Assembly: GCA_016699205.1 (NCBI GenBank)
Contig: CP064964.1
Coordinates: 390,001 to 422,000 of the forward strand
Length of the DNA stretch: 32,000 bases
Source of the DNA: Candidatus Saccharimonadota bacterium
GTDB lineage: Bacteria; Patescibacteriota; Patescibacteriia; 2-12-FULL-60-25
Reading direction: 5' to 3'
In this document: positions 9,280 to 29,227 of the stretch, in pieces
How the letters are laid out: every line of letters starts with the position of its first letter
Position numbering within the stretch: position 1 is the first letter of the stretch
Position numbers and translations under genes: made by a program
The notes under the pieces: generated by a model
The model's input: only the letters and a program-made list of their open reading frames with translations
Databases searched by the model: none
What the model was told of the DNA's origin: nothing

Positions 9280-9819
9280 CTATTCATCCTCGTCATCCTC
9301 AAAGACTTCTCTGCCGATCACGTAAAGGAGCGGGATTGGGGCAATCAACCAAAAGGAGCGGCCGATCTCGCCGAGAAATGCCTGCTGGAAAAATGGCGAG
9401 AGATTTTGAGTCGCTTCTGGAGGCAAGAGAAAAAGCGCGATGGAAACGAGCAGGCCGACTTGGGTAATACTGAACAATGCCGTCTCCCACCAGACTCCCC
9501 GCTCTTGCGCGAGATTCTTGAGGAGATGGCTGCGCCAGAGCAATCCAAAAATCAGGAAAAATAATCCGAGAAACCAGACAAGTTGAAAGGCGGAACTTTT
9601 ACCGGCATTCAACGCTTGCGACAAGCGCGAGAGAATCGGTGCGTTGGTGACGACGGCAAGAGCGAGATAGGTCGAAAGGAGAACCGTAACAGCTCGATCG
9701 CGGCCGACGGCAAAGCCATAGCCGAGTCCGGCGAGAGCGAGCATGCAAAAAACAATGATGTCCCAGGTAAAAGACATCCCGCCGACAACAAACCCGGCCT
9801 CGGGAGGCATAAAGAGCAT
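9280..9819 (-). CDS. polytopic membrane protein, CvpA-like
   Basis: 179-aa ORF with 4-5 hydrophobic helices. The N-terminal pattern FTWDIIVFCMLALAGLGYGF resembles CvpA-family proteins, and the tail is acidic. Either ATG 9819 or ATG 9777 could be the start. Confidence 0.5.
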   Translation of the reverse strand: MLFMPPEAGFVVGGMSFTWDIIVFCMLALAGLGYGFAVGRDRAVTVLLSTYLALAVVTNAPILSRLSQALNAGKSSAFQLVWFLGLFFLIFGLLWRSHLLKNLAQERGVWWETALFSITQVGLLVSIALFLLPPEATQNLSPFFQQAFLGEIGRSFWLIAPIPLLYVIGREVFEDDEDE

Positions 9820-9872
9820 AATAACACGTGCTTTTGTATTTTCCTCAGACGTGGAATAATTGTGTAAATATT

Positions 9873-10919: not shown

Positions 10920-10924
10920 AGAAT

Positions 10925-10951
10925 AATAACACGGGCCTAGAGGCCCGTGTT
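10925..10951. terminator. copy 1 of a 27-nt repeat containing a 20-nt perfect palindrome (ACACGGGCCT/AGGCCCGTGT); bidirectional terminator
   Basis: The GC-rich stem is followed by TTTTATTT on the plus strand. It lies between convergent genes that end at 10919 and 10952. Exact 27/27 match to 11872-11898. Confidence 0.7.
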
Positions 10952-11842: not shown

Positions 11843-11871
11843 AAATAGGTTTTTGAAAGCATAGCTCAAAA

Positions 11872-11898
11872 AATAACACGGGCCTAGAGGCCCGTGTT
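11872..11898. repeat. copy 2 of the 27-nt palindromic repeat, overlapping the dnaJ stop
   Basis: Identical to 10925-10951. The last dnaJ codons and stop (AAC ACG GGC CTC TAG = N T G L *) are encoded by the hairpin itself. Confidence 0.8.
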
Positions 11899-13230: not shown

Positions 13231-13446
13231 TTATTTCTTTGGTACCTCGTAGCGTAGCTTCTCGTATTCCGTAAGCGTCTTTTGAATTACCTCAGCTAAT
13301 TCCTTTGCCGTGAAGTGATTCAGGAAGATGCGGGAAACCAACTGTGCCTGCTGTTGATCTCCAACACGCGTATGCGCGAGGAAGTCGATAACAACGTCAC
13401 GCTCTTGGCTCGTAACGGCTACGATATTTGCGTAATGGCCCTTCAT
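13231..13446 (-). CDS. DUF3467-like small protein
   Basis: AGGAGG lies 4 nt upstream of ATG 13446 ([22 protein letters not shown]...[25 protein letters not shown]). The pattern resembles DUF3467 from my memory of that family; it has not been searched. Confidence 0.55.
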
Positions 13447-13636
13447 GTCCTCCTGGCATGGCATTCACCTTCAGGCGGGGTTGGGAGAGCCAAAGTTGAG
13501 CGAAACAAGAAACTTTGGGAGAGCATCCCACCACAGAAAGGCGAACCCCCGAAGAATCAGGTTGAACAAACACAACCACAAACACCCGAGACAAAACCCA
13601 TATTCTTCAAAGAATTCACCTGATTGGACAAGCCTC

Positions 13637-15596: not shown

Positions 15597-16088
15597 TTAT
15601 GAGGTGATGATGACTCGGGCGGGGCGGAGAACTTTTCCATGAAGCGACCAGCCATCCTGTACAACGCGGACAATGGAACCAGGCTCTTTGCCTTCAACGG
15701 CTTCCGTGCCGGCGGCGTCGTGGAGCTGCGGGTCAAAGGCTCCATCGACAGAGATGCGGGAGAGGCCGGCGTTCTGTGCTGCTTGATCCCAAAGCGATTT
15801 CACCGCCTTGATTCCGACCAGCCAGTTGTCCCATTTCTTTTTGTCATCCGGCGACATGGTTGCCGTGTCTGGTATGAATGCGAGCGCGAGAGCAAATTGG
15901 TCGATCGCGGGTAAAAGATCGGAGAGCAGACGCTCGTTGGCAAATTTGGCAAACTCGGCTTTCTCGCGTTCCGATTCTTTCTTTAAATTTTGGTAGTCGG
16001 CTTGAGCGCGCTTCCAGCCGGCGAGATACTCATCAGCTTTCAGTTGCCAGTTTTCAGGTTTCAGCTCTTCATTGATTTGTTCTTCCAT
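15597..16088 (-). CDS. grpE: nucleotide exchange factor GrpE
   Basis: The sequence [45 protein letters not shown] is typical of GrpE. The gene sits between hrcA and dnaK. Confidence 0.9.
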
Positions 16089-16772: not shown

Positions 16773-16799
16773 TTAGCAGTCAAACTGTCTAAGTGCTAA
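16773..16799 (-). promoter_or_regulatory. CIRCE operator (HrcA binding site)
   Basis: The minus strand reads TTAGCACTT-N9-GACTGCTAA, against the consensus TTAGCACTC-N9-GAGTGCTAA. It lies 5 nt upstream of the hrcA ATG. Confidence 0.85.
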
Positions 16800-16826
16800 T
16801 TTAAGACGCCCTCGACTTATCGTCAA
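16798..16826 (-). promoter_or_regulatory. putative hrcA promoter (TTGACG-17 nt-TAAATT)
   Basis: The -35 TTGACG (16821-16826) lies inside the hairpin downstream of the Nudix gene. The -10 TAAATT (16798-16803) overlaps the first bases of CIRCE. Confidence 0.5.
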
Positions 16827-16833
16827 GGGCGTC
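16805..16833 (-). terminator. hairpin after the Nudix gene
   Basis: GACGCCCTCGAC / GTCAAGGGCGTC forms a 12-bp stem with one mismatch and a 5-nt loop. The downstream U-tract is weak (TTAAATT). Confidence 0.45.
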
Positions 16834-16841
16834 CAGAATTG

Positions 16842-17309
16842 TTAGAGATGATGCTTCAGAAAGAACCGCACATCTTCCGGCATGTCGTACTTGCGGAGCT
16901 CGGTCTTGTCGATCCAGACGGCCTCGATCCCCTCCTTCACGGGAAGCGGCTCCGGGATGTAGATCAGGTAGCCCATGTCGATCATGTAGTGCTCGGGGTC
17001 GCCCGGGTTGGGCTTGCCGGCAGGAATCTTGATCGAGGTCAGATGTGCGGGCAGCCGCAGCACATCGACGTTACCGAAGGTTGAGAGTGGACGCAGATAC
17101 GGCTCGACGTCGATGCCGACCTCGACTTCGCACTCCTCGATCAATGCCATGATCGGGTCCTGGTCGCTCTCAACGTGACCGCCGGGCTGTAGCCAACAAC
17201 CGAGCTTGGCATGCTTGAGGAGAAGGGCGCGGGGCCGGGGAACTTCCTTGGTGATCAGGAAGGCGGAGACGGTGAGGACACGGTCGCCCTCGCGGAGCTC
17301 TCGTCGCAT
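16842..17309 (-). CDS. Nudix-fold protein with a degenerate Nudix box
   Basis: GGAGG lies 5 nt upstream of ATG 17309. GGHVESDQDPIMALIEECEVEVGI aligns to GGx5Ex7REUxEExGU but with E->Q, R->E and E->V substitutions. Codons are strongly G/C-ending. Confidence 0.6.
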   Translation of the reverse strand: MRRELREGDRVLTVSAFLITKEVPRPRALLLKHAKLGCWLQPGGHVESDQDPIMALIEECEVEVGIDVEPYLRPLSTFGNVDVLRLPAHLTSIKIPAGKPNPGDPEHYMIDMGYLIYIPEPLPVKEGIEAVWIDKTELRKYDMPEDVRFFLKHHL

Positions 17310-17342
17310 GACTACCTCCAAAAATGACCTTACGATGGAATC

Positions 17343-17387
17343 GATAAAACGAGAAGACCCCGAGGCATCAAGCCGTCGGGGTCTCGT
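17343..17387 (-). terminator. rho-independent terminator after ORF 17391..17870
   Basis: AGACCCCGA / TCGGGGTCT stem with a 12-nt loop, followed on the minus strand by GTTTTATC. Confidence 0.6.
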
Positions 17388-17390
17388 TAG

Positions 17391-17870
17391 TTAGCGGCTC
17401 ATGAAGCCGTACAGCATCATTTGGCAGGCTTTGCCAAAGCAGATGTTCGCCGTGTAGTCACTCATGGCGTAGCGGTGGCCCTCGATCGCAAGATCCATGC
17501 TCTTGCAGAGGCGGTGCATTTCATTGGTCGACGAGCTCAGGTGAAACTGCTGAGCTCGCCAGTCAGCCGTATTTGAGCGGCGCAGAACCCGGACAAGCGG
17601 CGAACGGAAACCGAGACCTGTCTGGATGAGTGTAAAGCCCGTCTCCGTATTTGATGAGCGCATACGCATCTCAAGACGAAGGACGTAACCGCAACCAGCC
17701 TCAAGGCCGACGACGACGCGATGTTCGCTATTCATGTCGTGCTCATGTACGAGCTCGTCGCAGTGATCGTAGTGATCATGGACAGCGCAGTACATATCCA
17801 TGAAGCGGCGCACAGCAAGTAAACGCGGGTCGTCGAGATTCGACGACATATCTGGCAGTCCAAATAGCAT
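17391..17870 (-). CDS. hypothetical protein (159 aa, His/Cys/Asp-rich N-terminal patch)
   Basis: AGGAGG (17876-17881) lies 5 nt upstream of ATG 17870. Contains CAVHDHYDHCDELVHEHD. No family recognised. Confidence 0.6.
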   Translation of the reverse strand: MLFGLPDMSSNLDDPRLLAVRRFMDMYCAVHDHYDHCDELVHEHDMNSEHRVVVGLEAGCGYVLRLEMRMRSSNTETGFTLIQTGLGFRSPLVRVLRRSNTADWRAQQFHLSSSTNEMHRLCKSMDLAIEGHRYAMSDYTANICFGKACQMMLYGFMSR

Positions 17871-17895
17871 GCCGTCCTCCTTTTTGGACTATTCA

Positions 17896-17924
17896 GCGAT
17901 ATCAAATTATAAGCTTTGCGTCAA
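17896..17924 (-). promoter_or_regulatory. putative promoter TTGACG-17 nt-(TGa)TATCGC
   Basis: The -35 is at 17919-17924. An extended -10-like TGATATCGC ends at 17896. It sits between the upstream terminator and the RBS. Confidence 0.45.
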
Positions 17925-17934
17925 GATATGAAGA

Positions 17935-17964
17935 GGCCCCCGTACCAAGCTTGGTACGGGGGCC
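17935..17964 (-). terminator. 30-nt perfect palindrome GGCCCCCGTACC-AAGCTT-GGTACGGGGGCC
   Basis: 12-bp GC-rich arms 7 nt after the stop at 17972-17974, followed on the minus strand by TCTTCATATCTT. Confidence 0.7.
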
Positions 17965-17971
17965 GTGTCAG

Positions 17972-18292
17972 TCAGCACTTGCGGCGGAGACCGTTGGAAG
18001 CGCGCAGGTCCGCGAGGTACTTCGCCGTGTCCGTCGTGCTGTCGAACGGCACGGGCGCCGGGTAGCGGCCGGCGTTCTCGGGAAGACCAGAGTCCATGTC
18101 CAGCCCCACGCACTGCGCGTAGGGCGGATGCGGCGTTGGATCCTTGAAGTCCTCGGGGACACTCGGACGGAGCACCATTGGGATGCTGGCATCTTCGTCG
18201 ATGCAGTTCTGGCAGGGCTGGCCCGGTTGCTTGTCGCAGCCCCGATCGACGCAGATCTCGTCCGCCTGGCAGCGCTTCTCCGGGGAACGCAT
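17972..18292 (-). CDS. hypothetical Cys-rich small protein (106 aa)
   Basis: Its ATG 18292 overlaps the upstream stop (TGATG). The frame was chosen from several overlapping GC-rich ORFs because nearly every codon ends in G/C and because of this coupling. Contains C-x5-C-x4-C-x7-C-x2-C (RCQADEICVDRGCDKQPGQPCQNC). Confidence 0.55.
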   Translation of the reverse strand: MRSPEKRCQADEICVDRGCDKQPGQPCQNCIDEDASIPMVLRPSVPEDFKDPTPHPPYAQCVGLDMDSGLPENAGRYPAPVPFDSTTDTAKYLADLRASNGLRRKC

Positions 18293-18567
18293 CAGAAGCC
18301 TCCGGAACGGCTGCCGTTGTCGGAGGCGCTGAATGCACGCCTCACGACCTCGCCGAAGTTGGTCTTGGGGGAGGGCGGCGGCGGGTTGGAGTACCGATGT
18401 TCGAAGTAGGGCTCGTCCTCGTCCATCCTCTCGCACATCGCGCGCACCTCGTCGGTGGTTGACGGTTCGGCTGGAGGAACGCTGCCGCGCCCGATCTCCA
18501 CGATCACGCCGTCGGCGACCTCGACCTCATTCAGATTGACTCCCTGCGGCACGGGCTTTCTCGCCAT
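18292..18567 (-). CDS. hypothetical small protein (91 aa)
   Basis: ATG 18567 (MARKPVPQGVNLNEVEVADG...) with GAGGAG 15 nt upstream. The track ORF starts at TTG 18639, inside the promoter. The exact start is uncertain. Confidence 0.5.
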   Translation of the reverse strand: MARKPVPQGVNLNEVEVADGVIVEIGRGSVPPAEPSTTDEVRAMCERMDEDEPYFEHRYSNPPPPSPKTNFGEVVRRAFSASDNGSRSGGF

Positions 18568-18603
18568 CTGTGAACTCACTTTCTCCTCAAAAGAGGTTCG
18601 CGC

Positions 18604-18632
18604 AGGATAGCGGAATTTTGGCCTTATGTCAA
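18604..18632 (-). promoter_or_regulatory. putative promoter TTGACA-17 nt-TATCCT
   Basis: -35 at 18627-18632 and -10 at 18604-18609, immediately downstream of the terminator at 18647-18680. Confidence 0.5.
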
Positions 18633-18646
18633 GGCTCAAGGAATCA

Positions 18647-18680
18647 GAAAAGCCCGCCGATCCAGAACAGATCGGCGGGC
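18647..18680 (-). terminator. rho-independent terminator
   Basis: GCCCGCCGAT / ATCGGCGGGC forms a 10-bp perfect stem with a 9-nt loop, followed on the minus strand by TTTTC. Confidence 0.7.
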
Positions 18681-18684
18681 CTTG

Positions 18685-19191
18685 TCAGTCTTCCGTGTGG
18701 CGCTCTTGGCGCTTGTGGAAGTATTCGATGAGGTCTCGTTTGACGAGGATGTAGCGATCCTTTTTGAGGAGGATGCTGCCTTCTCCGCCCTCGATGCCAT
18801 GCGTCTCGAGCAGCTTGATGAGCTTGCCGCTCTCGGTGACCGAGGCACGCAGCCACCACTTGTTGTTCTCGAGATCGTGCATGAGAGCGACCATGTCCCT
18901 GTGGCGCTCGAGCAAGAGCGAAGACCCGAGCGAGATCCCATGCTTCTTGTACTCGAAGACGAAACCCCAACTGAGTTTGAGCTCACCCTTGGAAGTACTG
19001 GTCTTGGCGCGGTATGTGACCGCGCAGATCGCGTGATCTGAACCGCTTCCCGACTGGCAGATGCGTTCGTACTCGACCCCGTAGACGTCCGCGAAGCGGC
19101 AGAGGGACGCGATATCTTGGTTCGCGTCCTCGGCCTGATCGAGCAGGGGGTCTCGATACTCGCGCAGTTCTTTCTTGGAAAGCGACTTCAT
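18685..19191 (-). CDS. hypothetical protein (168 aa)
   Basis: Its ATG 19191 overlaps the upstream stop (ATGA). Codons are G/C-ending. No family recognised. Confidence 0.65.
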   Translation of the reverse strand: MKSLSKKELREYRDPLLDQAEDANQDIASLCRFADVYGVEYERICQSGSGSDHAICAVTYRAKTSTSKGELKLSWGFVFEYKKHGISLGSSLLLERHRDMVALMHDLENNKWWLRASVTESGKLIKLLETHGIEGGEGSILLKKDRYILVKRDLIEYFHKRQERHTED

Positions 19192-19655
19192 CGGGGGCCT
19201 TTCGCGATCAGGAACGCTTGCGCGTGGAACTCGACGATGTCAGCAAGACGGTCTTCCTTGACCGGGTACTCGATACCGACGGCGTAGTCGGTTGCAAGGA
19301 GCATGTTGATGGCGTGCAGAAACTGCACCCCACGCTCACAGATACGCCGCTCGTCCTCCAATCCCATCATCGAGTAGTTCCAACTCTTGCCCGAGACCCA
19401 GGTCAGACGGCTGAACGACTTACCGTCGATGCCGGCTTCCAGTACGGCACGAGGCGTCTGGTCGACCAAGTCATAGAACCACAGCAGCTCGAGGCCGCCA
19501 GCCTTGGGAATGATGAAATAGTTGGTGTTGTCGATGAATTGGTGCTGACCGATGAGGCCGTGCTTGGCGAGGGGCATATCGAATGTCTCGTGCGCGAGCT
19601 TCTCGACATGCCTGAGCCTTGCCGGGACCAGGGAACGAACATTGTTCCTACCCAC
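19188..19655 (-). CDS. hypothetical protein (155 aa)
   Basis: GTG 19655 is preceded by AAGGAGG (19661-19667) with a 5-nt spacer. The track ORF begins at TTG 19730, which is itself the TTGACA -35 box. Confidence 0.6.
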   Translation of the reverse strand: MGRNNVRSLVPARLRHVEKLAHETFDMPLAKHGLIGQHQFIDNTNYFIIPKAGGLELLWFYDLVDQTPRAVLEAGIDGKSFSRLTWVSGKSWNYSMMGLEDERRICERGVQFLHAINMLLATDYAVGIEYPVKEDRLADIVEFHAQAFLIAKGPR

Positions 19656-19701
19656 AAAAACCTCCTTTACAAGGTGCCTGCACTCGCATGAATGCGGCCG
19701 G

Positions 19702-19730
19702 AACATATCAAAATATTGCCGGCTTGTCAA
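19702..19730 (-). promoter_or_regulatory. putative promoter TTGACA-17 nt-(TGa)TATGTT
   Basis: -35 at 19725-19730 and an extended -10 TGATATGTT ending at 19702. Confidence 0.55.
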
Positions 19731-19743
19731 TCGTCGTCGGAAT

Positions 19744-19776
19744 GCAAAACGCCGACCCGAGTGAACGGATCGGCGT
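19744..19776 (-). terminator. rho-independent terminator
   Basis: ACGCCGACCCG / CGGATCGGCGT stem with one mismatch and a 6-nt loop, followed on the minus strand by TTTTGC. Confidence 0.6.
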
Positions 19777-19780
19777 AGAA

Positions 19781-20254
19781 TTACTCTCCATTCAGGAGAA
19801 TCACAAAGTGCTGGAGCGTGAGATTGATGAGGTCATCATTCTCGAGTCTGATCTCCGGCTCATTGCGCGGAAACCATTCCCGGATTAGATGATCGATCTG
19901 CTGATCCGGAATCATGCCTACGCTCCATGAGCGCAGCCACATCCGCTCGGCTTCCCGAAAGTGCAGGCGGATGATGGATGACGAATCGTGATGTTCGTCG
20001 ACTGCTTGGATGGCGATCCATGAGGTGTGGCCGCGGAACGGTTCCCGCGATACGCCCATGGAGAGCGTGTAGGCGCTCCGACCCATGTACTGCACGCGCG
20101 GAAAATGCTCGTCCCCCTTGGACCGCCACTTGCGCGTGACCATGGGGATGCCGATCACCTCGAGTGTTGCCGCAATGCGAGCGAGTCCTTTGTGAGGAAT
20201 GCTCGGGTCGCGCTCGAACACGGTGAGTACGTTGATATCGATTTCCTCGTCCAT
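19781..20254 (-). CDS. hypothetical protein (157 aa)
   Basis: Its ATG 20254 lies 1 nt after the upstream TGA (TGAcATG). Codons are G/C-ending. No family recognised. Confidence 0.65.
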   Translation of the reverse strand: MDEEIDINVLTVFERDPSIPHKGLARIAATLEVIGIPMVTRKWRSKGDEHFPRVQYMGRSAYTLSMGVSREPFRGHTSWIAIQAVDEHHDSSSIIRLHFREAERMWLRSWSVGMIPDQQIDHLIREWFPRNEPEIRLENDDLINLTLQHFVILLNGE

Positions 20255-20255
20255 G

Positions 20256-20843
20256 TCAGCTCCCTACGTAGAGATCAGCATACTGCTGACGCGTTGGCGC
20301 GTGCTTGCAGGCGATTTCGAGCATCGCAGCGATACCTTCCATCGCCCTCCCGGCGCTCATGCCCTCGGCGAGCTCTCCGAGCTGGTCGAGCTTGGCTTCC
20401 TCGAGCAGCTTGGTCCACGCTTCCGGACGCTTGTACGGCGTGTGCTTGTCCTCGCCGTGGCGGATTCTGGCCGTCCCCCTCCAGCGATTGGAGACCGCTT
20501 CGAGGAAGATTGTTACCGGAAAGCCAAACTCCATGTGCGTGTGGTCGAGGCGATACGCGACGATGATCATCCCCGGACCGGTGTCGTCCTCGCCCTCAAA
20601 GCCGAGGTCGTAGTCAAAGAAGATGTGCGAGTCGCAGAGGAGGAAGACGTCACGGGTGAAGATGATGCGCATCGGCTGATCCGAGCGCCTGCGCGGCACG
20701 ATCTCGTCCGAGTAGCCCCAACGGAATCCGCCGTCGCCATCACCTTTGGACGAGGCGACCTGCAGACGAAGTTCCTTGGCGAGCGCGTCGGTGCGGAGAC
20801 ATTCCGCGTGAATCTTGTCCAGACTTTTCAGAACCGGATGCAT
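20256..20843 (-). CDS. hypothetical protein (195 aa)
   Basis: AAGGAG (20849-20854) lies 5 nt upstream of ATG 20843. Codons are G/C-ending. No family recognised. Confidence 0.65.
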   Translation of the reverse strand: MHPVLKSLDKIHAECLRTDALAKELRLQVASSKGDGDGGFRWGYSDEIVPRRRSDQPMRIIFTRDVFLLCDSHIFFDYDLGFEGEDDTGPGMIIVAYRLDHTHMEFGFPVTIFLEAVSNRWRGTARIRHGEDKHTPYKRPEAWTKLLEEAKLDQLGELAEGMSAGRAMEGIAAMLEIACKHAPTRQQYADLYVGS

Positions 20844-20870
20844 GCTTACTCCTTGTGAATGAGCGCCTCA

Positions 20871-20899
20871 GGTGTAATAGAAAAACGCGATTTTGTCAA
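20871..20899 (-). promoter_or_regulatory. TTGACA box overlapping the methyltransferase stop; -10 unclear
   Basis: TTGACA at 20894-20899 contains the TGA that ends the methyltransferase C-terminal frame. The best -10 candidates (TACACC, TATTAC) are weak. Confidence 0.35.
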
Positions 20900-21394
20900 C
20901 GCTCGTAGCGCATCGCAATCCCCTTTTCCTCGACGGACTTCCAGCCCGGGATCGCAAAGGCAAAGGAGATGATTTTTGTGCCGGGACGACATTCTTCTCT
21001 TAGCTTTTTCGCGATCAGCGGCATGATCGAGGTAATACCGAATATATAAATGACGGTGGCTTGCGAAAGGTCGGCGGATTAAGCAAGTTTTGCTGATATA
21101 CTTTGCACGTTCTCCAAAGACCGATAATTTGCGGCGCGACCACCAAACGAGAAATGGATTTAGTTCGTAACCGATGACCGTTGCTCCCCTTTTGGCGGCT
21201 TCGACAAGAATGCGGCCGTCGCCGGAGCCGAGATCGATGACGGTATCTTTCGAGTTGATATCGACCAAAGAGAATCCGTCGGGAATATCGCGGCGGCGGA
21301 GCGGGAGCCAAGGCGCGCCGATGCCGACGCCGAGGAAGTAGCGAGCAAAAAATACGAGGACTGCGATGAGTAGAAGGAGAAGAAAAAAATCCAT
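20896..21394 (-). pseudogene. class I SAM-dependent methyltransferase with N-terminal TM helix, frame-shifted
   Basis: MDFFLLLLLIAVLVFFARYFLGVGIGAPW...VIDLGSGDGRILVEAAKRGATVIGYELNP (motif I) is in one frame. The expected C-terminus ADLSQATVIYIFGITSIMPLIAKKLREECRPGTKIISFAFAIPGWKSVEEKGIAMRYER* is in another. The switch lies near 21075-21105. Codon usage is mixed, like the native genes. Confidence 0.65.
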
Positions 21395-21431
21395 AGAAAA
21401 CAAACGCCGCTGGGAGTATACCAGCGGCGTT
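21395..21431 (-). terminator. rho-independent terminator (repeat-module copy A)
   Basis: AACGCCGCTGG / CCAGCGGCGTT forms an 11-bp stem with a 7-nt loop, followed on the minus strand by TGTTTTCT. That tract runs straight into the methyltransferase ATG. Confidence 0.65.
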
Positions 21432-21441
21432 GAGCGACGTG

Positions 21442-21930
21442 TCAGCCGAGGATGAGCTTCTCGACTTCCTTCCAACTCTCGACGCGCTTTACGCGTGGGA
21501 GATGGTGGCGGAACTTGCTCACCTCGTCCTCACCTGCTCGGAAGAGAAAGAGGTGCTCGACGTGCGGGATGAGATATCCCAGCACCTCCAGACGATCATC
21601 GATGAAGTGCGTGATGTCGAGCTCCTTGCAGATCCCGGCCTTCTCCTCCCGCTTGCGGCAGAAGTGCACTCGCTCGGGCTTGAGCCCCGTCCGCTCGTAG
21701 AAGCGGTGATGCTCGAGCCAGCGCAGCGTCTTGTCTTGGATCTTCTTCCCGCACTTGGAGACGATGTACGCGTGCTCGCCGAACTTGAGATCGATGAGCC
21801 GCTTCACGGTCTCGACGGTGTCGGGCGTCGAGGTGGTGTTGAGGAAGTTCTCTGTGAAGAACGAGGTGTCCGTATCGTCGTTGACGCGATCCATGATCAC
21901 GCCCCCGACATCGATACCGATGGTGTCCAA
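21442..21930 (-). CDS. HAD-fold-like protein (5'-nucleotidase-like), atypical motif I
   Basis: TTG start at 21930. Motif I-like IGIDVGGVI (D-x-G instead of D-x-D), motif II-like YIVSKCG, motif IV-like HFIDDR. Codons are G/C-ending. Confidence 0.5.
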   Translation of the reverse strand: MDTIGIDVGGVIMDRVNDDTDTSFFTENFLNTTSTPDTVETVKRLIDLKFGEHAYIVSKCGKKIQDKTLRWLEHHRFYERTGLKPERVHFCRKREEKAGICKELDITHFIDDRLEVLGYLIPHVEHLFLFRAGEDEVSKFRHHLPRVKRVESWKEVEKLILG

Positions 21931-21962
21931 CTCAACCTACCTTTCTGTATTTGTTTGTTTGG

Positions 21963-21991
21963 AAACTAGATTAATTTTACCTTTTTGTCAA
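21963..21991 (-). promoter_or_regulatory. putative promoter TTGACA-17 nt-TAGTTT
   Basis: -35 at 21986-21991 and -10 at 21963-21968. Confidence 0.5.
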
Positions 21992-22018
21992 CCCCCGCGG
22001 GTGCGATGAATCGCGCCT

Positions 22019-22129
22019 CTACTCGTATCGCAACGCCTCAATCGGCGAGAGCTTAGAGGCTCGGCGCGCTGGTGCAAAACCAAAGCCGATACCGAGAAAG
22101 TAGCGCGTAAAAAGGACGAGGATGGCAAT
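22019..22129 (-). pseudogene. chimeric gene remnant: methyltransferase-like TM segment fused to a copy of the ftsX 3' end
   Basis: The minus strand reads ...IAILVLFTRYFLGIG|FGFAPARRASKLSPIEALRYE*. The 3' part includes a 54-nt exact match (22032-22085 = 24149-24202). The 5' part matches the methyltransferase N-terminus (IAVLVFFARYFLGVG) at 34/45 nt. No start codon. Confidence 0.65.
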
Positions 22130-22169
22130 AGAAATGCGAACGCCGTCCCGTAGAGCGCGGGACGGCGTT
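22130..22169 (-). terminator. rho-independent terminator (repeat-module copy B)
   Basis: AACGCCGTCCCG / CGGGACGGCGTT forms a 12-bp stem with a 7-nt loop. Its flanks are near-identical to those of the terminator at 21395-21431. Confidence 0.65.
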
Positions 22170-22179
22170 GAGCGATGTG

Positions 22180-22749
22180 TCAGACCCCGGTCGAACGGGG
22201 TACGTTGCCGAGGTCGTCGAAGAGCGTGTCAGAGAGGAAGCGCGCGAAGCGCTGATCGTCCTGCGGGCTGCAGGCGCCGTTGTACAGATACTCGCGATAC
22301 TCGGCGTTGGTGATTGCCCATGCCGCCGCGTGAGCGAAGGCATCGAGCAGGGTTCGCCACTTGTGCACGAACTGCATGAACTCGGGGCTGAACTCCGTGT
22401 GCAGGTCGACTTTGCGCTTGAAGATGAAGTGGCGGAGGCCGAGCTCCAGCTGATCGATGAGTGCCATACGCCCATCGGTCTGCTTGAAGGTGACCGTGAA
22501 GTCGTGCTGTGCACGCGGCTCGTCCGCGTTCCAGTCGATGTTCACCATCCAGCCAAAGTTGATCCAGCCGAGGAGCTGGTCCTTGTTCTTCAGCTCGATG
22601 TCGGCGACGTGAAGGAACGAGTGCGCCTTGTGCTTCTGACCTTGCGGCTCCTGCACGCGCCAGTTGGGCAGACGACCGCCCCAGAGCTTCTCCTCCATGA
22701 AGCGAATGTGCTCGATCGCTTCCGCAATGTCCTCGATATGCTTGTACAT
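22180..22749 (-). CDS. hypothetical protein (189 aa)
   Basis: GGAGG (22755-22759) lies 5 nt upstream of ATG 22749. Codons are G/C-ending. No family recognised. Confidence 0.65.
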   Translation of the reverse strand: MYKHIEDIAEAIEHIRFMEEKLWGGRLPNWRVQEPQGQKHKAHSFLHVADIELKNKDQLLGWINFGWMVNIDWNADEPRAQHDFTVTFKQTDGRMALIDQLELGLRHFIFKRKVDLHTEFSPEFMQFVHKWRTLLDAFAHAAAWAITNAEYREYLYNGACSPQDDQRFARFLSDTLFDDLGNVPRSTGV

Positions 22750-22788
22750 CTGCGCCTCCGGCGATACTTGATCGCAGATTTAATAAAT

Positions 22789-22794
22789 TGTCAA
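22789..22794 (-). promoter_or_regulatory. TTGACA -35-like box upstream of ORF 22180..22749
   Basis: Perfect TTGACA, but no convincing -10 at 16-18 nt. TATCGC lies 22 nt away. Confidence 0.3.
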
Positions 22795-22855
22795 TCCCTC
22801 GGAAATACAAAACCCTAGCGCAACCAAAAGCGCATTCCAGTGTTGTTGGTGTTTG

Positions 22856-24061: not shown

Positions 24062-24135
24062 ATTCTGTTACCTATTTTAACATTTTTTTGACTCTCCGTA
24101 AAATTTCGCTCATGTGAGCGCATTACCATGCGCCC

Positions 24136-24906
24136 CTACTCGTACCTTAACGCCTCAATCGGCGAGAGCTTAGAGGCTCGGCGCGCTGGTGCAAAACCAA
24201 AGACAATACCGATCACGGCGGAGACACTGAAAGCTAGGACAATGGAGTCGATAGAAAGCATGAATGTCCATCCGGGCTGGAATTGGTTCAGGATTTGGAT
24301 TGTTAGCCAGGACATCGCAATACCAAAAATAATCCCGATGATGCCACCTACCGATGTTACCGCGACGGCCTCAGCCATGAATTGACCGAGCACATCTACG
24401 CTTTTAGCGCCGAGCGCTTTGCGCAATCCGATTTCTGAAGTGCGCTCGGTTACCGTCACATACATAATGTTCATGATACCGATGCCACCAACGACAAGAG
24501 AGATGGCTGCAATCGAACCAAGCAAGATCGATAATACTTGGCCGATGGTGCCGGCATTTTTCTGCGCGTCTTCTTGGGTACCGACACGGAAATCGTCTTT
24601 GGAGAGCTCTGCGTTTGGATTATCCAGCTTATGCGTTTCGCGAAGCAGATACCGTACTTCTTCTTTCGCTTCATCCGGCGACATATCACGAGGCTTGATA
24701 CTCAAAAAATTGAGGCGATCCTTGTTGAACAAGTCCATCGCCGAGGTCAGCGGGATATAGATAAGATCATCCAGCTTCGTAAAGAAGCGCGTGCCGGCTT
24801 TTTCCATAACACCGACGACGCGATAGTTCACGCGGCGGATTTTGATGAGCTTCCCAACCGCCGATTCGTCGCCAAATAATTCACGCGCCACATTGCTCCC
24901 AATCAC
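24136..24906 (-). CDS. ABC-transporter permease (MacB/FtsX family), C-terminal two thirds of a frame-shifted gene
   Basis: IGSNVARELFGDESAVGKLIKIRRVNYRVVGVMEKAGTRFF... parallels residues 150-405 of the adjacent paralog. FtsX TM helices are present, ending FGFAPARRASKLSPIEALRYE*. Confidence 0.8.
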   Translation of the reverse strand: MIGSNVARELFGDESAVGKLIKIRRVNYRVVGVMEKAGTRFFTKLDDLIYIPLTSAMDLFNKDRLNFLSIKPRDMSPDEAKEEVRYLLRETHKLDNPNAELSKDDFRVGTQEDAQKNAGTIGQVLSILLGSIAAISLVVGGIGIMNIMYVTVTERTSEIGLRKALGAKSVDVLGQFMAEAVAVTSVGGIIGIIFGIAMSWLTIQILNQFQPGWTFMLSIDSIVLAFSVSAVIGIVFGFAPARRASKLSPIEALRYE

Positions 24907-25367
24907 GGCGACCTTGGCGCGGCCATCGATGTCATCGTCGAGGAGAAAGCGCCTTCGGCGAGATCGGCGGGGTAGATTTCAATTTCTCCGGGCGTAGATC
25001 CCCAGAGTGAAACGTTCATATTCTCCGGACCATCGGACGCTACGGCCGTACTCACGATCGTCCCAAGTACCGACTCGACCCAGGACTGACGCTTGAGTTC
25101 TCGATAATCCTTGTAGGTGAGCGTCAACTTTTGAAGCGGGCTTGGTCCCCCGCCGCTTTGGTCGCCGGAGCCGTTAGAGATAATAACGACATCCGGTCCA
25201 AACGATGCGACGTTGGCGAGGAGAAAATTTTCGGCAGCTTTTCCAACCGAGAGCATCAAAATCACGGATCCGATACCGATCACGATTCCGAGCATCGTTA
25301 AAACCGCACGCGCCTTGTTGCGGATAAGGCTCTTGAAGGAGATGGAGACGAGATCGCGTACGTGCAT
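24903..25367 (-). CDS. ABC-transporter permease (MacB/FtsX family), N-terminal third of the same frame-shifted gene
   Basis: ATG 25367 lies 1 nt after the upstream TAA (MHVRDLVSISFKSLIRNKARAVLTMLGIVIGIGSVILMLS...). The frame is lost after ...YPADLAEG; the expected RFLLDDDIDGRAKVAVIGSN is read after adding 1 nt near 24949-24953. Confidence 0.8.
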   Translation of the reverse strand: MHVRDLVSISFKSLIRNKARAVLTMLGIVIGIGSVILMLSVGKAAENFLLANVASFGPDVVIISNGSGDQSGGGPSPLQKLTLTYKDYRELKRQSWVESVLGTIVSTAVASDGPENMNVSLWGSTPGEIEIYPADLAEGAFSSTMTSMAAPRSP

Positions 25368-25368
25368 A

Positions 25369-26586
25369 TTAGTCTTTGCGGAGCGCCTCGATCGGATTAA
25401 GTAGCGACGCCTTACGCGCAGGAGCAAAACCAAAGATCACGCCGATGGTTGTTGAAACAAAAAATCCCAGCGCCATACCAGTCGTCGAGACGGCAAAAGA
25501 CCAGCCGGATTGGAAGGACGAGATCGCGAGAATAGCGATATACGATAATCCGATACCCAAGAGAATCCCAATGATGCCTCCGACGCCCGTCAGGACAATC
25601 GCCTCGATCAAGAACTGCGACAAGACATCCCGGCTACGCGCGCCAAGCGACTTACGCAGACCGATTTCACGGGTGCGCTCCGTAACCGAGACGTACATGA
25701 TGTTCATGATGCCTATGCCGCCTACAAGCAGCGAGATAGCGGCGATGGCCGTCAGCAAGATCCCGAGAATATCGGTAATCTGGGTCGCGGTCTTTACAAG
25801 CTCTTCTTGTGAGAGCACGTTAAAATCATCCTCTTCCCCGAGATCAATATTGTGGCGGTCGCGAAGGACATCCTGGATACGTCGCATGCCGTCGGTGATG
25901 GAGAGCAGGTTGGTACGGAGGACAAATGCCTGAACGTACTTCTTATTATAGAGATCGAGTCCTGCTGTTACGGGTATATAGATATTCCGATCCACATTAT
26001 CAAAGCCGCGCGTGCCGACTTTTTCCATCACGCCAACGACGCGGAAGTTTTGCCGGCTCACACGCACGGTTTTTCCCACGGCACTTTCATCGCCAAATAA
26101 TTCTCGGGCTATTTCCGCTCCAAGAACCGTAACGCGCGCACGGGAGTCGATGTCATCTTCCGTGAGAAAGAGTCCTTGTGCGGGCTTGATATCGTAAAAC
26201 TTGATTTCATCCGGCATCGTGGCCGTGACTTTTCCCTCGCGCTCGACGCCATTGGCAATGATTTTGTCATTCTGTTCAACACTCGCAATAGCCAAATCAA
26301 TCCAGGACTTTTGCTTGATCGCTTTCAAGTCGTCGAATGTCAAAACCTCTTCTGCAAAGGCGTTGGTAAAACTACCGGAGCTTGGCGGACCATTAGCGAC
26401 AATGATGAGCCCCGAGCCAAATGAGTTGACCGTGCTTACGATATAACGCTCGGCCGCTTCTGCTATCGATAAAACCAGAATCACGGAAGTGATTCCAATA
26501 ATGATACCGAGCATGGTCAGCGCTGTGCGCCCCTTGGTGCGCCCTAGGCTGTCGAATGCCGATTTGATCAGGTCGCGGATATGCAT
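25369..26586 (-). CDS. ABC-transporter permease (MacB-like periplasmic domain + FtsX domain)
   Basis: 405 aa. N-terminal TM, a periplasmic core, and three C-terminal TM helices with the FGFAPARKASLLNPIEALR signature. Confidence 0.85.
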   Translation of the reverse strand: MHIRDLIKSAFDSLGRTKGRTALTMLGIIIGITSVILVLSIAEAAERYIVSTVNSFGSGLIIVANGPPSSGSFTNAFAEEVLTFDDLKAIKQKSWIDLAIASVEQNDKIIANGVEREGKVTATMPDEIKFYDIKPAQGLFLTEDDIDSRARVTVLGAEIARELFGDESAVGKTVRVSRQNFRVVGVMEKVGTRGFDNVDRNIYIPVTAGLDLYNKKYVQAFVLRTNLLSITDGMRRIQDVLRDRHNIDLGEEDDFNVLSQEELVKTATQITDILGILLTAIAAISLLVGGIGIMNIMYVSVTERTREIGLRKSLGARSRDVLSQFLIEAIVLTGVGGIIGILLGIGLSYIAILAISSFQSGWSFAVSTTGMALGFFVSTTIGVIFGFAPARKASLLNPIEALRKD

Positions 26587-26617
26587 GGGGCAGTGGTTAG
26601 TTTTCAGTGGTCAGGGA

Positions 26618-27355
26618 TTACTTCTTCAACTCGCGCTCGCCGAGTTTGTGGCGCTCGCCGTCTAGACGACGGTCACTTACGAGGAGGCCATCACGCAAGG
26701 TGAGAATGCGCTCGGCGTAAGCAGCGGTGTCGGTCTCGTGGGTGACAAGAATGATGGTGTGACCTTTCTTCAGGTTGAGCTCTAACAATGTATCCATGAC
26801 AGCTTGGCCGTTTTTGGAATCGAGGTTTCCCGTCGGTTCATCGGCGAAGATCACCGAAGGTTTGCGAACAAGGGCGCGGGCGATCGCGACACGCTGACGC
26901 TCACCGCCAGAGAGCTGGTTAGAAAGGTTCTTCACACGATGACGGAGACCGACAATATCGATGGCTTCCATAGCAAGTTTTTCCCGGTCTCTCAGCGGCA
27001 CGTCCGAGTACAGAAGCGGGAGCATGACGTTCTCGAGCACGGTGGTCTTTGGAAGCAAGTTGAAGGACTGAAAAATGAAACCGACCTTCTCTCCGCGCAT
27101 GGCGGCGAGTTCATCGTCTTCCATTTTTGAGACGTCGCGACCTTCAAACAAATATTTTCCACCCGTGAGCGTGTCGAGGAAGCCGAGAATCTGCATCAAG
27201 GTCGACTTGCCGGAGCCGGACGGGCCCATGATGGCCACGAATTCTCCTTTGGGAATTTCAAAGTCAATGCCATGCAGGACATGCGTCGGCACTCCGTCGT
27301 TGTAGTAGGCTTTTTTCAAGCCCTCAACGCGGATGACAGCCGGATTCTTAGACAT
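26618..27355 (-). CDS. ABC-transporter ATP-binding protein (MacB/LolD type)
   Basis: Walker A GPSGSGKST, ABC signature LSGGERQRVAIARAL, Walker B VIFADEPTGNLD. Confidence 0.9.
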   Translation of the reverse strand: MSKNPAVIRVEGLKKAYYNDGVPTHVLHGIDFEIPKGEFVAIMGPSGSGKSTLMQILGFLDTLTGGKYLFEGRDVSKMEDDELAAMRGEKVGFIFQSFNLLPKTTVLENVMLPLLYSDVPLRDREKLAMEAIDIVGLRHRVKNLSNQLSGGERQRVAIARALVRKPSVIFADEPTGNLDSKNGQAVMDTLLELNLKKGHTIILVTHETDTAAYAERILTLRDGLLVSDRRLDGERHKLGERELKK

Positions 27356-27358
27356 AAT

Positions 27359-29227
27359 TTAGTTTCCTACTTTGGCTTCAGCCTCCAATTTACCGAATTC
27401 GTCAGCAGAGACCTCGCTAATGACAACGATCTGCTCCTCACTCAAACCTTTCACGACTTCCGCGCGGCCTTCATCACCGCGGAGACCGAGTTCAATGTCC
27501 GCATCTTTCACGCTTCCACCCGCAATGACACGTACATAGCGCTGGCCATCGCGCTCGCGGATCGAACGAGTCGGAATGACGAGAACATTCTCACGATTGC
27601 CGGTTTTCACGGTGAGGTTGGCGGTCATACCAGGCTTGATGTCGCGGCCGGCGGCGTCGATAGCGACGTAGACCTTGTAGTAGATAGCGTCCGAGACTTT
27701 TGTTTGGTCGGGGTTTTCCGAAATGACTTTGCCGACAAATTTTACATCGTCTCCAAAAGCGTCGAGCGTGATCTCAACGGTTTGGTCTGGTGAAACTTTG
27801 ACGATGTCTGCTTCCGGAACAAGTGCTTCCACAGAATAACCCTCCGTCGAGACCATTTTCACAGCTGTGACATTAGCGCCGACTTGCTCGCCAATGCTCG
27901 GGATGATGTCGGTGACGACGCCGTCGACCGGAGCAATGATTTGTACGTCCGCAAGGCGTTCGCGGGCTTGCTGATAGGCGGTTTGTGCATCGAGGACTTG
28001 GGCGCGGAGACCGGCGACATCGACAGAGCGCGGGGCGGCTTGGCGCAAGTCGAGCGTTGCTTGCTGGATCGCAAGATTTGTTTCTGCCGTTTTGACCTTC
28101 GTCACCAAATTTTTCTGCGCGATATCGTAATTTGCCTTGGCGGTGTCATACGCGATCTGCAAGGTTTCTTTGGAACCGCTTTGCGAGATGGAGCTTGAGC
28201 GCGCCGTCTCGATGTAGTTGGTGATGCTCGTGAGATTTGTGCTCACGCTTGCACGATCTGCATCGATGCCGGCTTTTTTGGAAGCAAGCGACGTCTCGCT
28301 CAAGTTGATATTGGTAATAGAACCGGCGAGCACCTTCTGAACTTCATCGAGGTAGAGCTGGGTTTTTCGGAGCGCATCCTGCATCTGCTCGCCTACCGCG
28401 AGAACGGTTTCATTTGGTGTCGAGGATGTGAGGTTGCGCGCCGCTGTGTCGACGGCATTCACGGCATTCTTGGCGATCGGGTACGCCTGCTTGGCACGCT
28501 CAAATGCGTCGCGCGCGTAAATACCGAGCACGCCTTCATACAAGTCATTGGCCGAGGTGTTGTCGACGCCGATTTCCGCGTCGCCATCGATAAGACCGGA
28601 ACGCATCGGGCCGAGTGCGCCTTGGAGTGCCGAGCGGAGATTGGCGTAGGAGGCGGAGACGGTCTGCTCGGAGGTGTTGCCACTTGTTTCAAAATCGACG
28701 CGTGCTTTTTCCAAGGCAAGTTCAGAAACGCGTAACTCATTTTGGACGTTCAAGCGCGTGGCCTCGAGATCGGCCTTAGCTTGGTCGACTTGGGCTTGGG
28801 CGATCGCAATTGTCTCTTTTGTTTCTCCGGCGAGACGCGCATCCAAGTTGGCTTGCGCGATGGCGAGCGCGGCACGGGCGCGCTCTGAGGCAAAACGGAG
28901 ATCGCGGCTCTGGAGCTCAGCGATCACATCACCTCGTTTTACGATCGAACCAACCTTTTTATAAATACTTTCGAATGGGGCTGTACTGGAAAAAGCGAGG
29001 TTCAACCGTGCATCCGGCTTAATTTCGCCGGTGACTTCTACTGTTTGGACAACATTCCCCTTCTCCACTTTGCGGGTTTCATAAAATGGGCCTTCATTGC
29101 CGCCGCGACCAAATGCAAACCAGGCGCCACCGAGGACGATGATGGAGATAATCCAAAACCACTTGTTCTTTAAAAATCGGAAGCGAGACTTCTTGGGTAC
29201 CATTGTCTGTTCTTGGGTGTTTTCCAT
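27359..29227 (-). CDS. HlyD/MacA-family periplasmic adaptor with a very long coiled-coil hairpin
   Basis: 622 aa. N-terminal TM (WFWIISIIVLGGAWFAF), a lipoyl-like motif (VKRGDVIAELQSRDL...VDGVVTDI), and extended Ala/Gln-rich coiled coils. It is the first gene of the efflux operon. Confidence 0.8.
   Translation of the reverse strand: MENTQEQTMVPKKSRFRFLKNKWFWIISIIVLGGAWFAFGRGGNEGPFYETRKVEKGNVVQTVEVTGEIKPDARLNLAFSSTAPFESIYKKVGSIVKRGDVIAELQSRDLRFASERARAALAIAQANLDARLAGETKETIAIAQAQVDQAKADLEATRLNVQNELRVSELALEKARVDFETSGNTSEQTVSASYANLRSALQGALGPMRSGLIDGDAEIGVDNTSANDLYEGVLGIYARDAFERAKQAYPIAKNAVNAVDTAARNLTSSTPNETVLAVGEQMQDALRKTQLYLDEVQKVLAGSITNINLSETSLASKKAGIDADRASVSTNLTSITNYIETARSSSISQSGSKETLQIAYDTAKANYDIAQKNLVTKVKTAETNLAIQQATLDLRQAAPRSVDVAGLRAQVLDAQTAYQQARERLADVQIIAPVDGVVTDIIPSIGEQVGANVTAVKMVSTEGYSVEALVPEADIVKVSPDQTVEITLDAFGDDVKFVGKVISENPDQTKVSDAIYYKVYVAIDAAGRDIKPGMTANLTVKTGNRENVLVIPTRSIRERDGQRYVRVIAGGSVKDADIELGLRGDEGRAEVVKGLSEEQIVVISEVSADEFGKLEAEAKVGN

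Follow-up and report, generated by a model that had tools for sequence, protein, structure and literature searches.

A position-fixed, hypervariable locus of small orphan proteins between ftsX and hrcA in a clade of Candidatus Uhrbacteria

Our subject is a row of small genes lying between a MacB/FtsX-type permease gene (ftsX) and hrcA in a 32,000-nucleotide stretch of DNA, called the window below (positions 390,001 to 422,000 of the forward strand of contig CP064964.1, assembly GCA_016699205.1). The window comes from a closed metagenome-assembled genome of the Patescibacteria/Parcubacteria group, labelled Candidatus Uhrbacteria bacterium and made up of a single contig of 1,082,254 bp. An initial annotation had read this row as an acquired accessory array. 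Taking all the evidence together we lean, with a modest preference, towards a replacement-type flexible locus of a clade of Candidatus Uhrbacteria that is fixed in position and hypervariable, encodes orphan cytoplasmic proteins, is kept by recombination and may serve in conflict. The evolutionary part of this description is quite likely to be right. The more specific suggestion of an intracellular conflict role, such as phage resistance, counter-resistance or toxin-immunity-like pairs, is tentative. The families of the locus are found almost nowhere else, and the predicted fold of one of the proteins (g7) has no structural neighbour in the PDB or BFVD.

All genes of the locus lie on the minus strand (Table 1). 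The initial annotation had described ten small co-oriented genes in seven self-contained units, and the open reading frames (ORFs), promoters and terminators confirm this: there are ten ORFs of 91-195 aa, labelled g1 to g10, together with an eleventh gene that it had missed (MT, a methyltransferase gene). In order of transcription, a membrane-fusion adaptor, an ABC ATPase and two MacB/FtsX permeases are followed by an HD-like gene (HD), g10, g9, MT, g8, g7, g6, g5, g4, g3, g2 and g1 (Nudix), and then by hrcA, grpE, dnaK and dnaJ. The proteins of all ten ORFs correspond residue for residue to records QQR61216-QQR61226 of a public protein collection (locus tags IPH19_02020 to 02070), and the coding signature GC1 > GC2 < GC3, that is of G+C content at the three codon positions, holds in the called frames. 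At the hrcA edge the CIRCE-like operator is present as had been proposed. The opposite boundary, which had been set at the HD-domain gene, should be moved out to ~24129, since that gene is part of an inserted module bracketed by repeats.

Relatives were gathered through an hrcA scan of one genome per GTDB species, through contigs with identical g2 and through contigs with g7 homologues, and yielded nine distinct versions of the locus besides that of the window (Table 2, where the relatives' loci carry handles such as L017). All eight versions that reach the left flank begin directly after the second ftsX, all that reach the right flank end at hrcA, and in none of the relatives recovered is the ftsX-hrcA interval empty. 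Its length from ftsX stop to hrcA start goes from 7.4 kb in the window down to 1.25 kb in L003. Presence or absence varies among close relatives for HD, g10, g9 and g5 only: HD is confined to the window, L007 and L008, g10 is absent from L008 and from every more distant relative, g9 is 98% identical in L017 and absent from L008, and g5 is seen only in the window, L007, L008, L009 and L017/L018. The other genes (MT, g8, g7, g6, g4, g3, g2 and g1) are syntenic at the same site, including in L020, for which no MT is listed and whose flanking proteins are only 46-67% identical. A metagenome scan with the g7 alignment found one locus, L016, with the same island and flank matches as L002. The backbone of the locus is a conserved feature of the clade and not a block acquired by this genome, and the ftsX-proximal end is where whole cassettes are gained and lost.

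The variation within the shared genes is deep. L017 comes from almost the same organism as the window. Its flanking proteins are 96-100% identical to those of the window (hrcA 99%, dnaK 99%, first permease 100%), while its locus proteins stand at 51% for g8, 52% for g7, 58% for g6, 59% for g4, 60% for g3, 74% for g2, 85% for g5, 98% for g9 and 97% for g1. Synonymous divergence (dS) between the two is 1.07-1.57 in g8, g7 and g6 and 0.67-0.74 in g4, g3 and g2, compared to 0.05-0.32 in the flanks, and dS this high indicates old alleles and not merely fast-evolving proteins. The ratio of nonsynonymous to synonymous divergence (dN/dS) is 0.22-0.50 in the locus versus 0.00-0.11 in the flanks, so the locus proteins are under purifying but relaxed selection. 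The most divergent genes between close relatives are g8 and g7, and their identity matrices are star-like, with 42-64% between distinct alleles whatever the identity of the flanks; even against L020 g7 keeps 59%.

This decoupling of allele relationships from the genome background is also apparent in other genes. The g1 alleles contradict the flanks, with 79% identity between the window and L002, 51% between the window and the closer L004, and 76% between L004 and L023. Between the window and L008, dS is 0.014-0.028 in g5 to g2 and 0.015 in HD, as against 0.73-0.90 in the ftsX genes and 0.61 in grpE. In sliding windows along the alignment with L017, identity is 96-99% up to the start of g8 and 54-79% from there on; it recovers to 92-95% within the 3' half of g5 and the spacer between g5 and g4, is low in g4-g3, rises to 93% in the spacer between g3 and g2 and is low again in g2. 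In the comparison with L008, g6 contains a patch of 300 bp at 67-78% in surroundings of 98-100%. Such sharp identity blocks point to homologous recombination that imports divergent alleles. The allele patterns fit a locus under diversifying or frequency-dependent selection.

Additionally, each unit of the locus carries its own expression signals. When 58 nt were folded from each stop codon onward, strong hairpins (free energy -21 to -30 kcal/mol, z-scores -3.2 to -6.6) were found after g10, g9, g7, g5, g3, g2 and g1, and none in these folds after MT, g8, g6 or g4. Hairpins after exactly those seven genes divide the locus into seven units, [g10], [g9], [g8-g7], [g6-g5], [g4-g3], [g2] and [g1]. 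Between 16760 and 24200 the minus strand contains seven TTGACR hexamers, every one of them upstream of a unit (g10, g9, g8, g6, g4, g2) or of hrcA, and a consensus scan returned 7 promoter-like sites compared to 2.9 +/- 1.8 in shuffles. Most starts are preceded by a GGAGG-like Shine-Dalgarno sequence (SD). The initial annotation was therefore right about the TTGACA or TTGACG box in six of seven units (all but g1), the GC-rich hairpin at the end of every unit and the strong SD of most genes. Three of the units are translationally coupled gene pairs: g6 and g5 share ATGA, the g4 stop and g3 start share TGATG, and g8 and g7 are 2 nt apart.

These signals are conserved across the relatives. In nine of the ten comparisons made for g4, g2 and g6, identity is 8-28 points higher in the 70 nt preceding the start codon than in the coding sequence, the sole exception being g6 against L020, the most distant relative. 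The alignments preserve the TTGACR box, a 17-nt spacer (ending in the extended -10 TG for g6 and g2), a TATnnT-like -10 and the SD, and the g3 terminator has a compensatory change in L004. The g4 5' untranslated region (window 18568-18604), GAACCTCTTTTGAGGAGAAAGTGAG, is identical in the window, L008, L017, L004 and L002 and differs in L020, even though BLAST no longer recognises the g4 protein in L004 and L002. Conservation of promoters and linkers implies that the units are kept expressed, and the linkers may also serve as homology for exchange. In the same g4 leader a small hairpin, CCUC-UUUU-GAGG, could form over the SD; it has no Rfam match, and a scan of the window returned no Rfam family. 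The leader is a possible translational control element, perhaps a temperature-sensitive one given its heat-shock neighbourhood.

Table 1. Features of the ftsX-hrcA locus in the window
Feature	Coordinates	Strand	Remarks
3' end of ftsX, second MacB/FtsX permease	24130..24212	-	copy A of the 83-nt direct repeat; left edge of the variable locus; FtsX/MacB_PCD Pfam on orthologues
HD-like gene, 401 aa	22856..24061	-	part of the 2117-bp inserted module; GC3 0.55
g10, 189-aa orphan, single-gene unit	22180..22749	-	-35 TTGACA at 22794; terminator ~22139-22168; GC3 0.85
Displaced relic of ftsX 3' end	22013..22095	-	copy B of the 83-nt repeat
g9, 162-aa HAD/NT5C-like, single-gene unit	21442..21930	-	promoter 21991; terminator 21403-21431; GC3 0.85
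MT, small class-I S-adenosylmethionine (SAM) methyltransferase with N-terminal transmembrane helix	~20897..21394	-	frameshifted in the window; GC3 ordinary
g8, 195-aa orphan, first gene of g8-g7 unit	20256..20843	-	-35 at 20899
g7, 157-aa orphan	19781..20254	-	terminator 19749-19776
g6, 155 aa (172 aa from alternative start 19706), first gene of g6-g5 unit	19188..19655	-	extended -10 promoter 19702-19730
g5, 168-aa orphan	18685..19191	-	terminator ~18652-18680
g4, 91-aa acidic proline-rich protein, first gene of g4-g3 unit	18292..18567	-	promoter 18604-18632
g3, 106 aa	17972..18292	-	Cys-rich putative zinc-ribbon motif; conserved PENAGRxxAP; terminator 17935-17964
g2, 159-aa His/Asp-rich orphan, single-gene unit	17391..17870	-	-35 TTGACG at 17924; terminator ~17354-17385
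g1, 155-aa Nudix-fold, single-gene unit	16842..17309	-	strong SD, no TTGACR box; terminator ~16805-16834, overlapping the hrcA -35
CIRCE-like operator upstream of hrcA	16774..16800	-	right edge of the locus

Table 2. Gene content of the locus in the window and its relatives, in order of transcription
Locus	Genes
Window, L007	HD, g10, g9, MT, g8, g7, g6, g5, g4, g3, g2, g1
L008	HD, MT, g8, g7, g6, g5, g4, g3, g2, g1
L017	unrelated 152-aa gene, g9, MT, g8 to g1
L004	MT, g8, g7, g4-like, g3, g2, g1
L002, L021, L022	98-114-aa gene, MT, g8, g7, g6, g4-like, g3-like, g2, g1
L020	g8, g7, g6, g4, g3, g2, g1
L023	g7, g3, g1
L003	g7, g3
L001	g2 directly upstream of hrcA; contig stops upstream of g2

The base composition of the locus sets it apart from its flanks. 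GC3 of the ten island genes is 0.66-0.85 (mean 0.77 +/- 0.06), compared to 0.42-0.66 (mean 0.58 +/- 0.07) in 21 flanking genes (Mann-Whitney p = 5e-6), the reference being the 32-kb window plus the flanks of the relatives only, and bulk G+C is 0.579 inside the island versus 0.519 outside it. Every one of the five spot counts in the initial annotation is exact. Its statement that nearly every codon ends in G or C in three named genes describes a real enrichment in too strong terms, as the proportion is 75-85%. In all four relatives measured (L002, L003, L004 and L008) the GC3 of the locus is likewise above that of the flanks, by ~0.1-0.2; the values are 0.64-0.80 against 0.46-0.51 in L002, 0.58-0.60 against 0.38-0.51 in L003, and 0.64-0.86 against 0.54-0.69 in L004. 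Shared gene order and raised GC3 in the relatives mean that the backbone is not a recent foreign acquisition. Recombination is positively linked to gene GC content in bacteria (PMC4450053). We infer that the raised GC3 comes from recombination-associated GC bias (GC-biased gene conversion, gBGC) or from an old shared origin and not from recent import, and we favour a highly recombining locus. A more general caution follows from this locus, which is that locally raised GC3 need not signal recent foreign origin.

At the ftsX-proximal end, the true 3' end of ftsX (copy A) and a relic between g10 and g9 (copy B) form an 83-nt direct repeat that is 93% identical. Copy B runs on into a hairpin and a TTGACA promoter, the same that come right after ftsX in L017, which identifies this copy as the displaced original 3' end of ftsX. 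Between the two copies lie 2117 bp with HD, g10 and a replacement for the ftsX 3' end. A shorter repeat, of 21 nt, is located at the 3' ends of both g10 and g9, and L008 does not have the segment corresponding to window 21435-22843 (g10, the relic and g9), its junction containing a 12-nt filler.

A second variable site lies downstream of dnaJ, at window positions 9832-11868, and holds a low-GC (0.43) gene for a 363-aa coiled-coil protein on the plus strand as well as a 305-aa gene. L008 and L017 have no such segment, and in L007 ~0.9 kb stands in its place. Two copies of the dnaJ terminator (10922-10951 and 11869-11898) enclose the 305-aa gene, part of a third is found at 9815-9831, and this style of insertion with a duplicated terminator is the same as in the island. 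The flanks of the locus (24136-29227 and 15597-16088) are mosaic as well. Between the window and L008 dS is 0.10 in the ABC ATPase versus 0.73-0.90 in the permeases, and 0.12 in hrcA versus 0.61 in grpE, and in this population the whole neighbourhood seems to recombine frequently. The two permeases are encoded by tandem paralogues, ~48-55% identical. The region of a DUF3467-type gene between dnaK and dnaJ (13231-13473) is ~80% identical to L007, L008 and L017, with neighbours at 91-99%. A MazE-antitoxin-like gene of 74-76 aa is located just upstream of the ABC-exporter operon in L017 (2317-2547), L018 (1094-1324) and L020 (901-1125).

For eight of the ten proteins, all but g1 and g9, Pfam, NCBIfam, PHROG and PADLOC returned no match, so that the lack of any recognisable family stated in the initial annotation is borne out. 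The island proteins are soluble by hydropathy, with a hydrophobic segment resembling a transmembrane helix only in MT, and none of the locus proteins has a signal peptide or a recognisable C-terminal secretion signal. Glycosyltransferase or surface domains are not found among them in Pfam, nor do Pfam and PHROG scans of the locus show an integrase or transposase, capsid, tail, terminase or repressor. There is no tRNA in the window. All-versus-all BLASTP gave no paralogy among the island proteins. A kinship of g7 and g8 was considered on account of a similar alpha-beta6-alpha order and weak p32-like Foldseek matches (TM-score <= 0.33), which we do not take as evidence; the hhalign probability for the pair is 5%. 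Sequence and profile searches of the PDB with g2, g5, g6, g7, g8, g10 and HD gave nothing significant. Residues 36-77 of g6 have a profile match (E 0.0099), centred on IDN[ST], to the DUSP domain of USP4/USP15 that is probably due to chance. The locus proteins nonetheless retain invariant motifs.

The two proteins with known folds had been called catalytically degenerate. This holds for g1, which matches Pfam NUDIX PF00293 over the gathering score (E 3.8e-6) and so has the fold, but in the window allele the Nudix box reads GHVESDQDPIMALIEECEVEVGI, with the E, the R and one further E position changed relative to the catalytic box GX5EX7REUXEEXGU. The gene occurs as allele classes, with a degenerate box in that of the window (IEECEVEVGI) and a canonical one in that of L004 (9427-9891) and L023 (4336-4803), IREFKEEVGI, and a KPNPGDP.H motif is invariant in all g1 alleles. 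The description does not hold for g9, which belongs to phrog_420 (E 4e-11) and is 35% identical to the 'phosphatase' gp107 of Arthrobacter phage Atuin, whose gene adjoins a ribonucleotide reductase gene. Its motif I, IGIDVGGVI, compares to IGIDIGNVI in the Atuin homologue, with DxG in place of the DxD of HAD phosphatases, which provides their nucleophile and acid/base pair. As DxG is common to g9 and the phage homologue, it is a trait of the subfamily and not decay.

The remaining assignments are weak or narrow. The HD-like protein has only a marginal Pfam HD match (E 0.075), and an exact-sequence look-up for it gave no record. Neither HD nor g10 has a tblastn match among 50,697 phage genomes, where g9 has one; g10, g9 and HD have none in IMG/VR scans; and g10 has no family, PDB or phage match. 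MT, queried as its intact orthologue at L008:6463-6960, matches mad2 of the MADS defence system in PADLOC (E 1e-12) in the SAM-binding domain only (positions 284-379 of 492), and the only other PADLOC match is that of the g1 Nudix box to PDC-S07 (E 4e-5). The PADLOC check proposed in the initial annotation thus gives no convincing match to a known defence family.

The families with structural models are very small. A profile search among 5.8e9 proteins finds 14 clusters for g7, which of all the locus genes has been seen in the largest number of relatives. An exhaustive phmmer search of 1.84e9 representative proteins found 3 true relatives of g8, a word-indexed search 7 clusters at 90%; two further g8 matches (P0082 and P0083) are translated repeats and were discarded as spurious. 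AlphaFold2 models were built from 15 sequences for g7 (predicted local distance difference test, pLDDT, 92.2; predicted template modelling score, pTM, 0.87) and from 7 for g8 (pLDDT 78.5, pTM 0.82). In Foldseek searches of the PDB neither had a match at E <= 0.001, the best being E 0.18 for g7 and 0.14 for g8 with TM-scores <= 0.33, and g7 had no match at E <= 0.001 among the viral structures of BFVD.

Several other explanations could account for parts of these observations. According to the initial annotation, the locus would be a recently acquired foreign island of ~6 kb from a donor of higher GC, carrying defence or anti-defence cassettes. GC3 well above the flanks, orphan proteins, the varying presence of HD, g10 and g9 and the direct repeats around HD and g10 speak for this. 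However, eight of the genes are syntenic out to L020, the relatives have raised GC3 too, there is no tRNA, integrase or transposase and no defence family, and the idea fits only the ftsX-proximal sub-block of HD, g10 and g9, so that we consider it improbable as an account of the whole. What stands of that proposal is a variable, accessory-like part of the neighbourhood made of self-contained orphan cassettes, with HD, g10, g9 and g5 coming and going; what falls is the acquisition of the backbone as a block, since most genes keep their order and place in relatives. Aligning the interval to see whether it is empty there, as had been suggested, showed homologous genes in every relative recovered. 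Conserved synteny with similar GC3, which had been named as the finding that would speak for a core and not an accessory region, is seen for most genes. A chimeric assembly that brought in higher-GC DNA can be dismissed with near certainty: single-base frameshifts in dnaK, ftsX and MT might hint at it, but independent assemblies from JGI, NCBI, Logan and ENA have the same gene order and junctions (92-98% identity or identical proteins), which also excludes the mis-join that the initial annotation had wanted checked.

The frameshifts themselves are indels of a single base or of 2 nt, in window genes that every relative has intact. They split dnaK at ~13979 (557 aa in the window versus 632 aa in relatives), the second ftsX/macB permease at ~24952 (176 + 256 aa versus 410 aa) and MT at ~21105 and ~21077, MT being an intact 165-aa gene in relatives. 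They are probably uncorrected sequencing or assembly errors, and the genes not pseudogenes.

A remnant of a prophage or other mobile element, in the form of an array of moron-like units, would explain the unit anatomy and the deviating composition (PMC4378225), and g9 does have a PHROG family and its homologue in Atuin. We rate this as very unlikely, given that the locus holds no integrase, capsid, tail, terminase or repressor, that the viral and phage searches described above (IMG/VR for g10, g9 and HD, phage tblastn for HD and g10) were empty, and that the position is fixed across diverged species. Two other sources of diversity were rejected. A diversity-generating retroelement is contradicted by the lack of a reverse transcriptase domain, by the only long repeat being the ftsX 3' end and by divergence that spans whole ORFs, and an integron by the lack of an integrase and by cassettes with their own promoters and terminators.

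Another possibility is that the neighbouring ABC exporter of MacB type, with its adaptor, delivers the locus proteins as effectors onto the host cell of a presumed episymbiont, and that co-evolution of host and symbiont drives their diversity. The operon of adaptor, ATPase and two FtsX genes adjoins it in every locus reaching the left flank, hypervariability fits host interaction, and ABC systems with membrane-fusion proteins export substrates without N-terminal signal peptides. We nevertheless regard this as a long shot, because the proteins have no signal peptides, transmembrane segments or recognisable C-terminal secretion signals and the units, with promoters and terminators of their own, do not belong to the exporter operon; the adjacency may be plain synteny. 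The strongest competitor, plausible in part though still unlikely in our estimate, is a neutral hot spot: lineage-specific genes of low importance in a recombination-prone, weakly constrained interval, with no function in conflict. The flanking housekeeping genes are mosaic too (dS 0.05-0.9 between the same genomes), dN/dS is 0.2-0.5, only two genes are left in L003 and one allele class has a decayed Nudix box. Against neutrality, the -35 boxes, SDs and terminators are conserved across species, mostly above the level of the ORFs, the proteins have invariant motifs, a compact fold is predicted with confidence for g7, and the depth of the alleles (dS > 1) is far above anything in the flanks. Moreover, in the small genomes (~1 Mb) of the candidate phyla radiation (CPR) useless genes are expected to be lost.

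In the flexible locus that we prefer, homologous recombination would carry alleles and cassettes from one lineage to another, and in CPR bacteria the DNA could plausibly arrive by uptake. The module of HD and g10 would be the product of a Campbell-type integration, with one crossover between a circular intermediate and the 3' end of ftsX, and the diversity would be maintained by negative frequency-dependent selection, of which deep diversity that crosses species boundaries under purifying selection is the expected product. The predicted cytoplasmic products, the coupled pairs and the nucleotide-enzyme folds (Nudix, HAD-like, HD-like and methyltransferase) favour an intracellular role in conflict.

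There are shortcomings in this account that should be kept in mind. The conflict role is based solely on the evolutionary pattern and the layout, and no known defence or anti-defence family (PADLOC, PHROG) or toxin/antitoxin family (Pfam, NCBIfam, PADLOC) was convincingly matched in the locus. Much of the pattern could also arise with no selection for diversity, from relaxed constraint at a recombination hot spot. A dN/dS below 1 everywhere gives no sign of positive selection, and the alleles are few for site-level tests. No recombinase gene is present to account for the repeat-bracketed insertions, and known replacement islands usually encode exposed structures, while the products here are predicted to be cytoplasmic.

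A bolder reading is that the locus is a new kind of chromosomal cassette array in Patescibacteria, in which conserved promoter and terminator linkers would act as recombination handles, deeply diverged alleles of orphan cytoplasmic proteins would be swapped, at least one of these with a fold that resembles nothing in the PDB or BFVD, Campbell-type insertions would use short homologies of 21-83 nt without a dedicated recombinase, and the whole would amount to a novel system of intracellular immunity or conflict in these ultra-small symbionts. We think this doubtful. Replacement-type flexible islands are already known as a kind of locus; in the literature searched, the orphan cytoplasmic content (including a confidently modelled fold that lacks structural neighbours), the cassette architecture with conserved linkers and recombinase-free short-repeat insertions in a Patescibacterium had not been described before. 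The tiny genomes of candidate-phyla bacteria are full of genes without annotation, and their dealings with phages and hosts are poorly understood. The pattern seen here, of orphan families with strong promoters that stay at one site in different species while their ancient alleles are exchanged, is one that usually marks arms-race genes. Being short and soluble, the proteins lend themselves to structural work and to assays of toxicity or phage challenge, with g7 and g8 to be taken first, and the locus could be a model for the flexible compartment of a reduced genome without mobile-element machinery.

A comparison with known systems helps to place the locus. It shares the deviating composition of a classic genomic island, but relatives have no empty site, mobility hallmarks are lacking and direct repeats bracket only the sub-module of HD and g10. 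Co-oriented short cassettes beside a fixed site, gained and lost at one end, recall an integron array; here an integrase is missing, attC-like repeats did not come to light (without a dedicated attC search), and the units have the promoters and terminators that integron cassettes normally lack. A phage moron is a single coding region of odd composition with its own promoter and terminator, inserted by an unclear mechanism (PMC4378225). The promoter-ORF-terminator units of deviating composition are similar, but they are not in a prophage, have no phage genes around them and keep their position across species. The three two-gene operons of small proteins, strain-variable and with overlapping or abutting stops and starts, resemble type II toxin-antitoxin or toxin-immunity pairs, although none is similar to any known toxin, antitoxin or immunity family, and the occurrence of g7 without g8 in L003 and L023 means that this pair is not obligate. 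With defence islands the locus has in common the clustering of variable, self-expressed genes that include nucleotide-enzyme folds (Nudix, HAD-like, HD-like and SAM methyltransferase). It differs in that no PADLOC system is matched, that variation is mostly allelic within the same genes and that enzyme motifs are degenerate (Nudix) or atypical (DxG).

The closest likeness is to replacement flexible islands, in which divergent versions at the same position undergo homologous exchange with sharp boundaries, and for which a link to phage pressure has been proposed (Lopez-Perez, Martin-Cuadrado & Rodriguez-Valera 2014, PMC4033161). Our locus likewise has very different versions at the same chromosomal position (alleles of 42-64% identity) and sharp-boundaried homologous exchange. 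The known islands encode mostly exposed structures, and this one small orphans that are predicted to be cytoplasmic. It also differs in the grain of the exchange, as homologous alleles 45-60% identical are exchanged one gene or one unit at a time, every unit having a conserved promoter and terminator.

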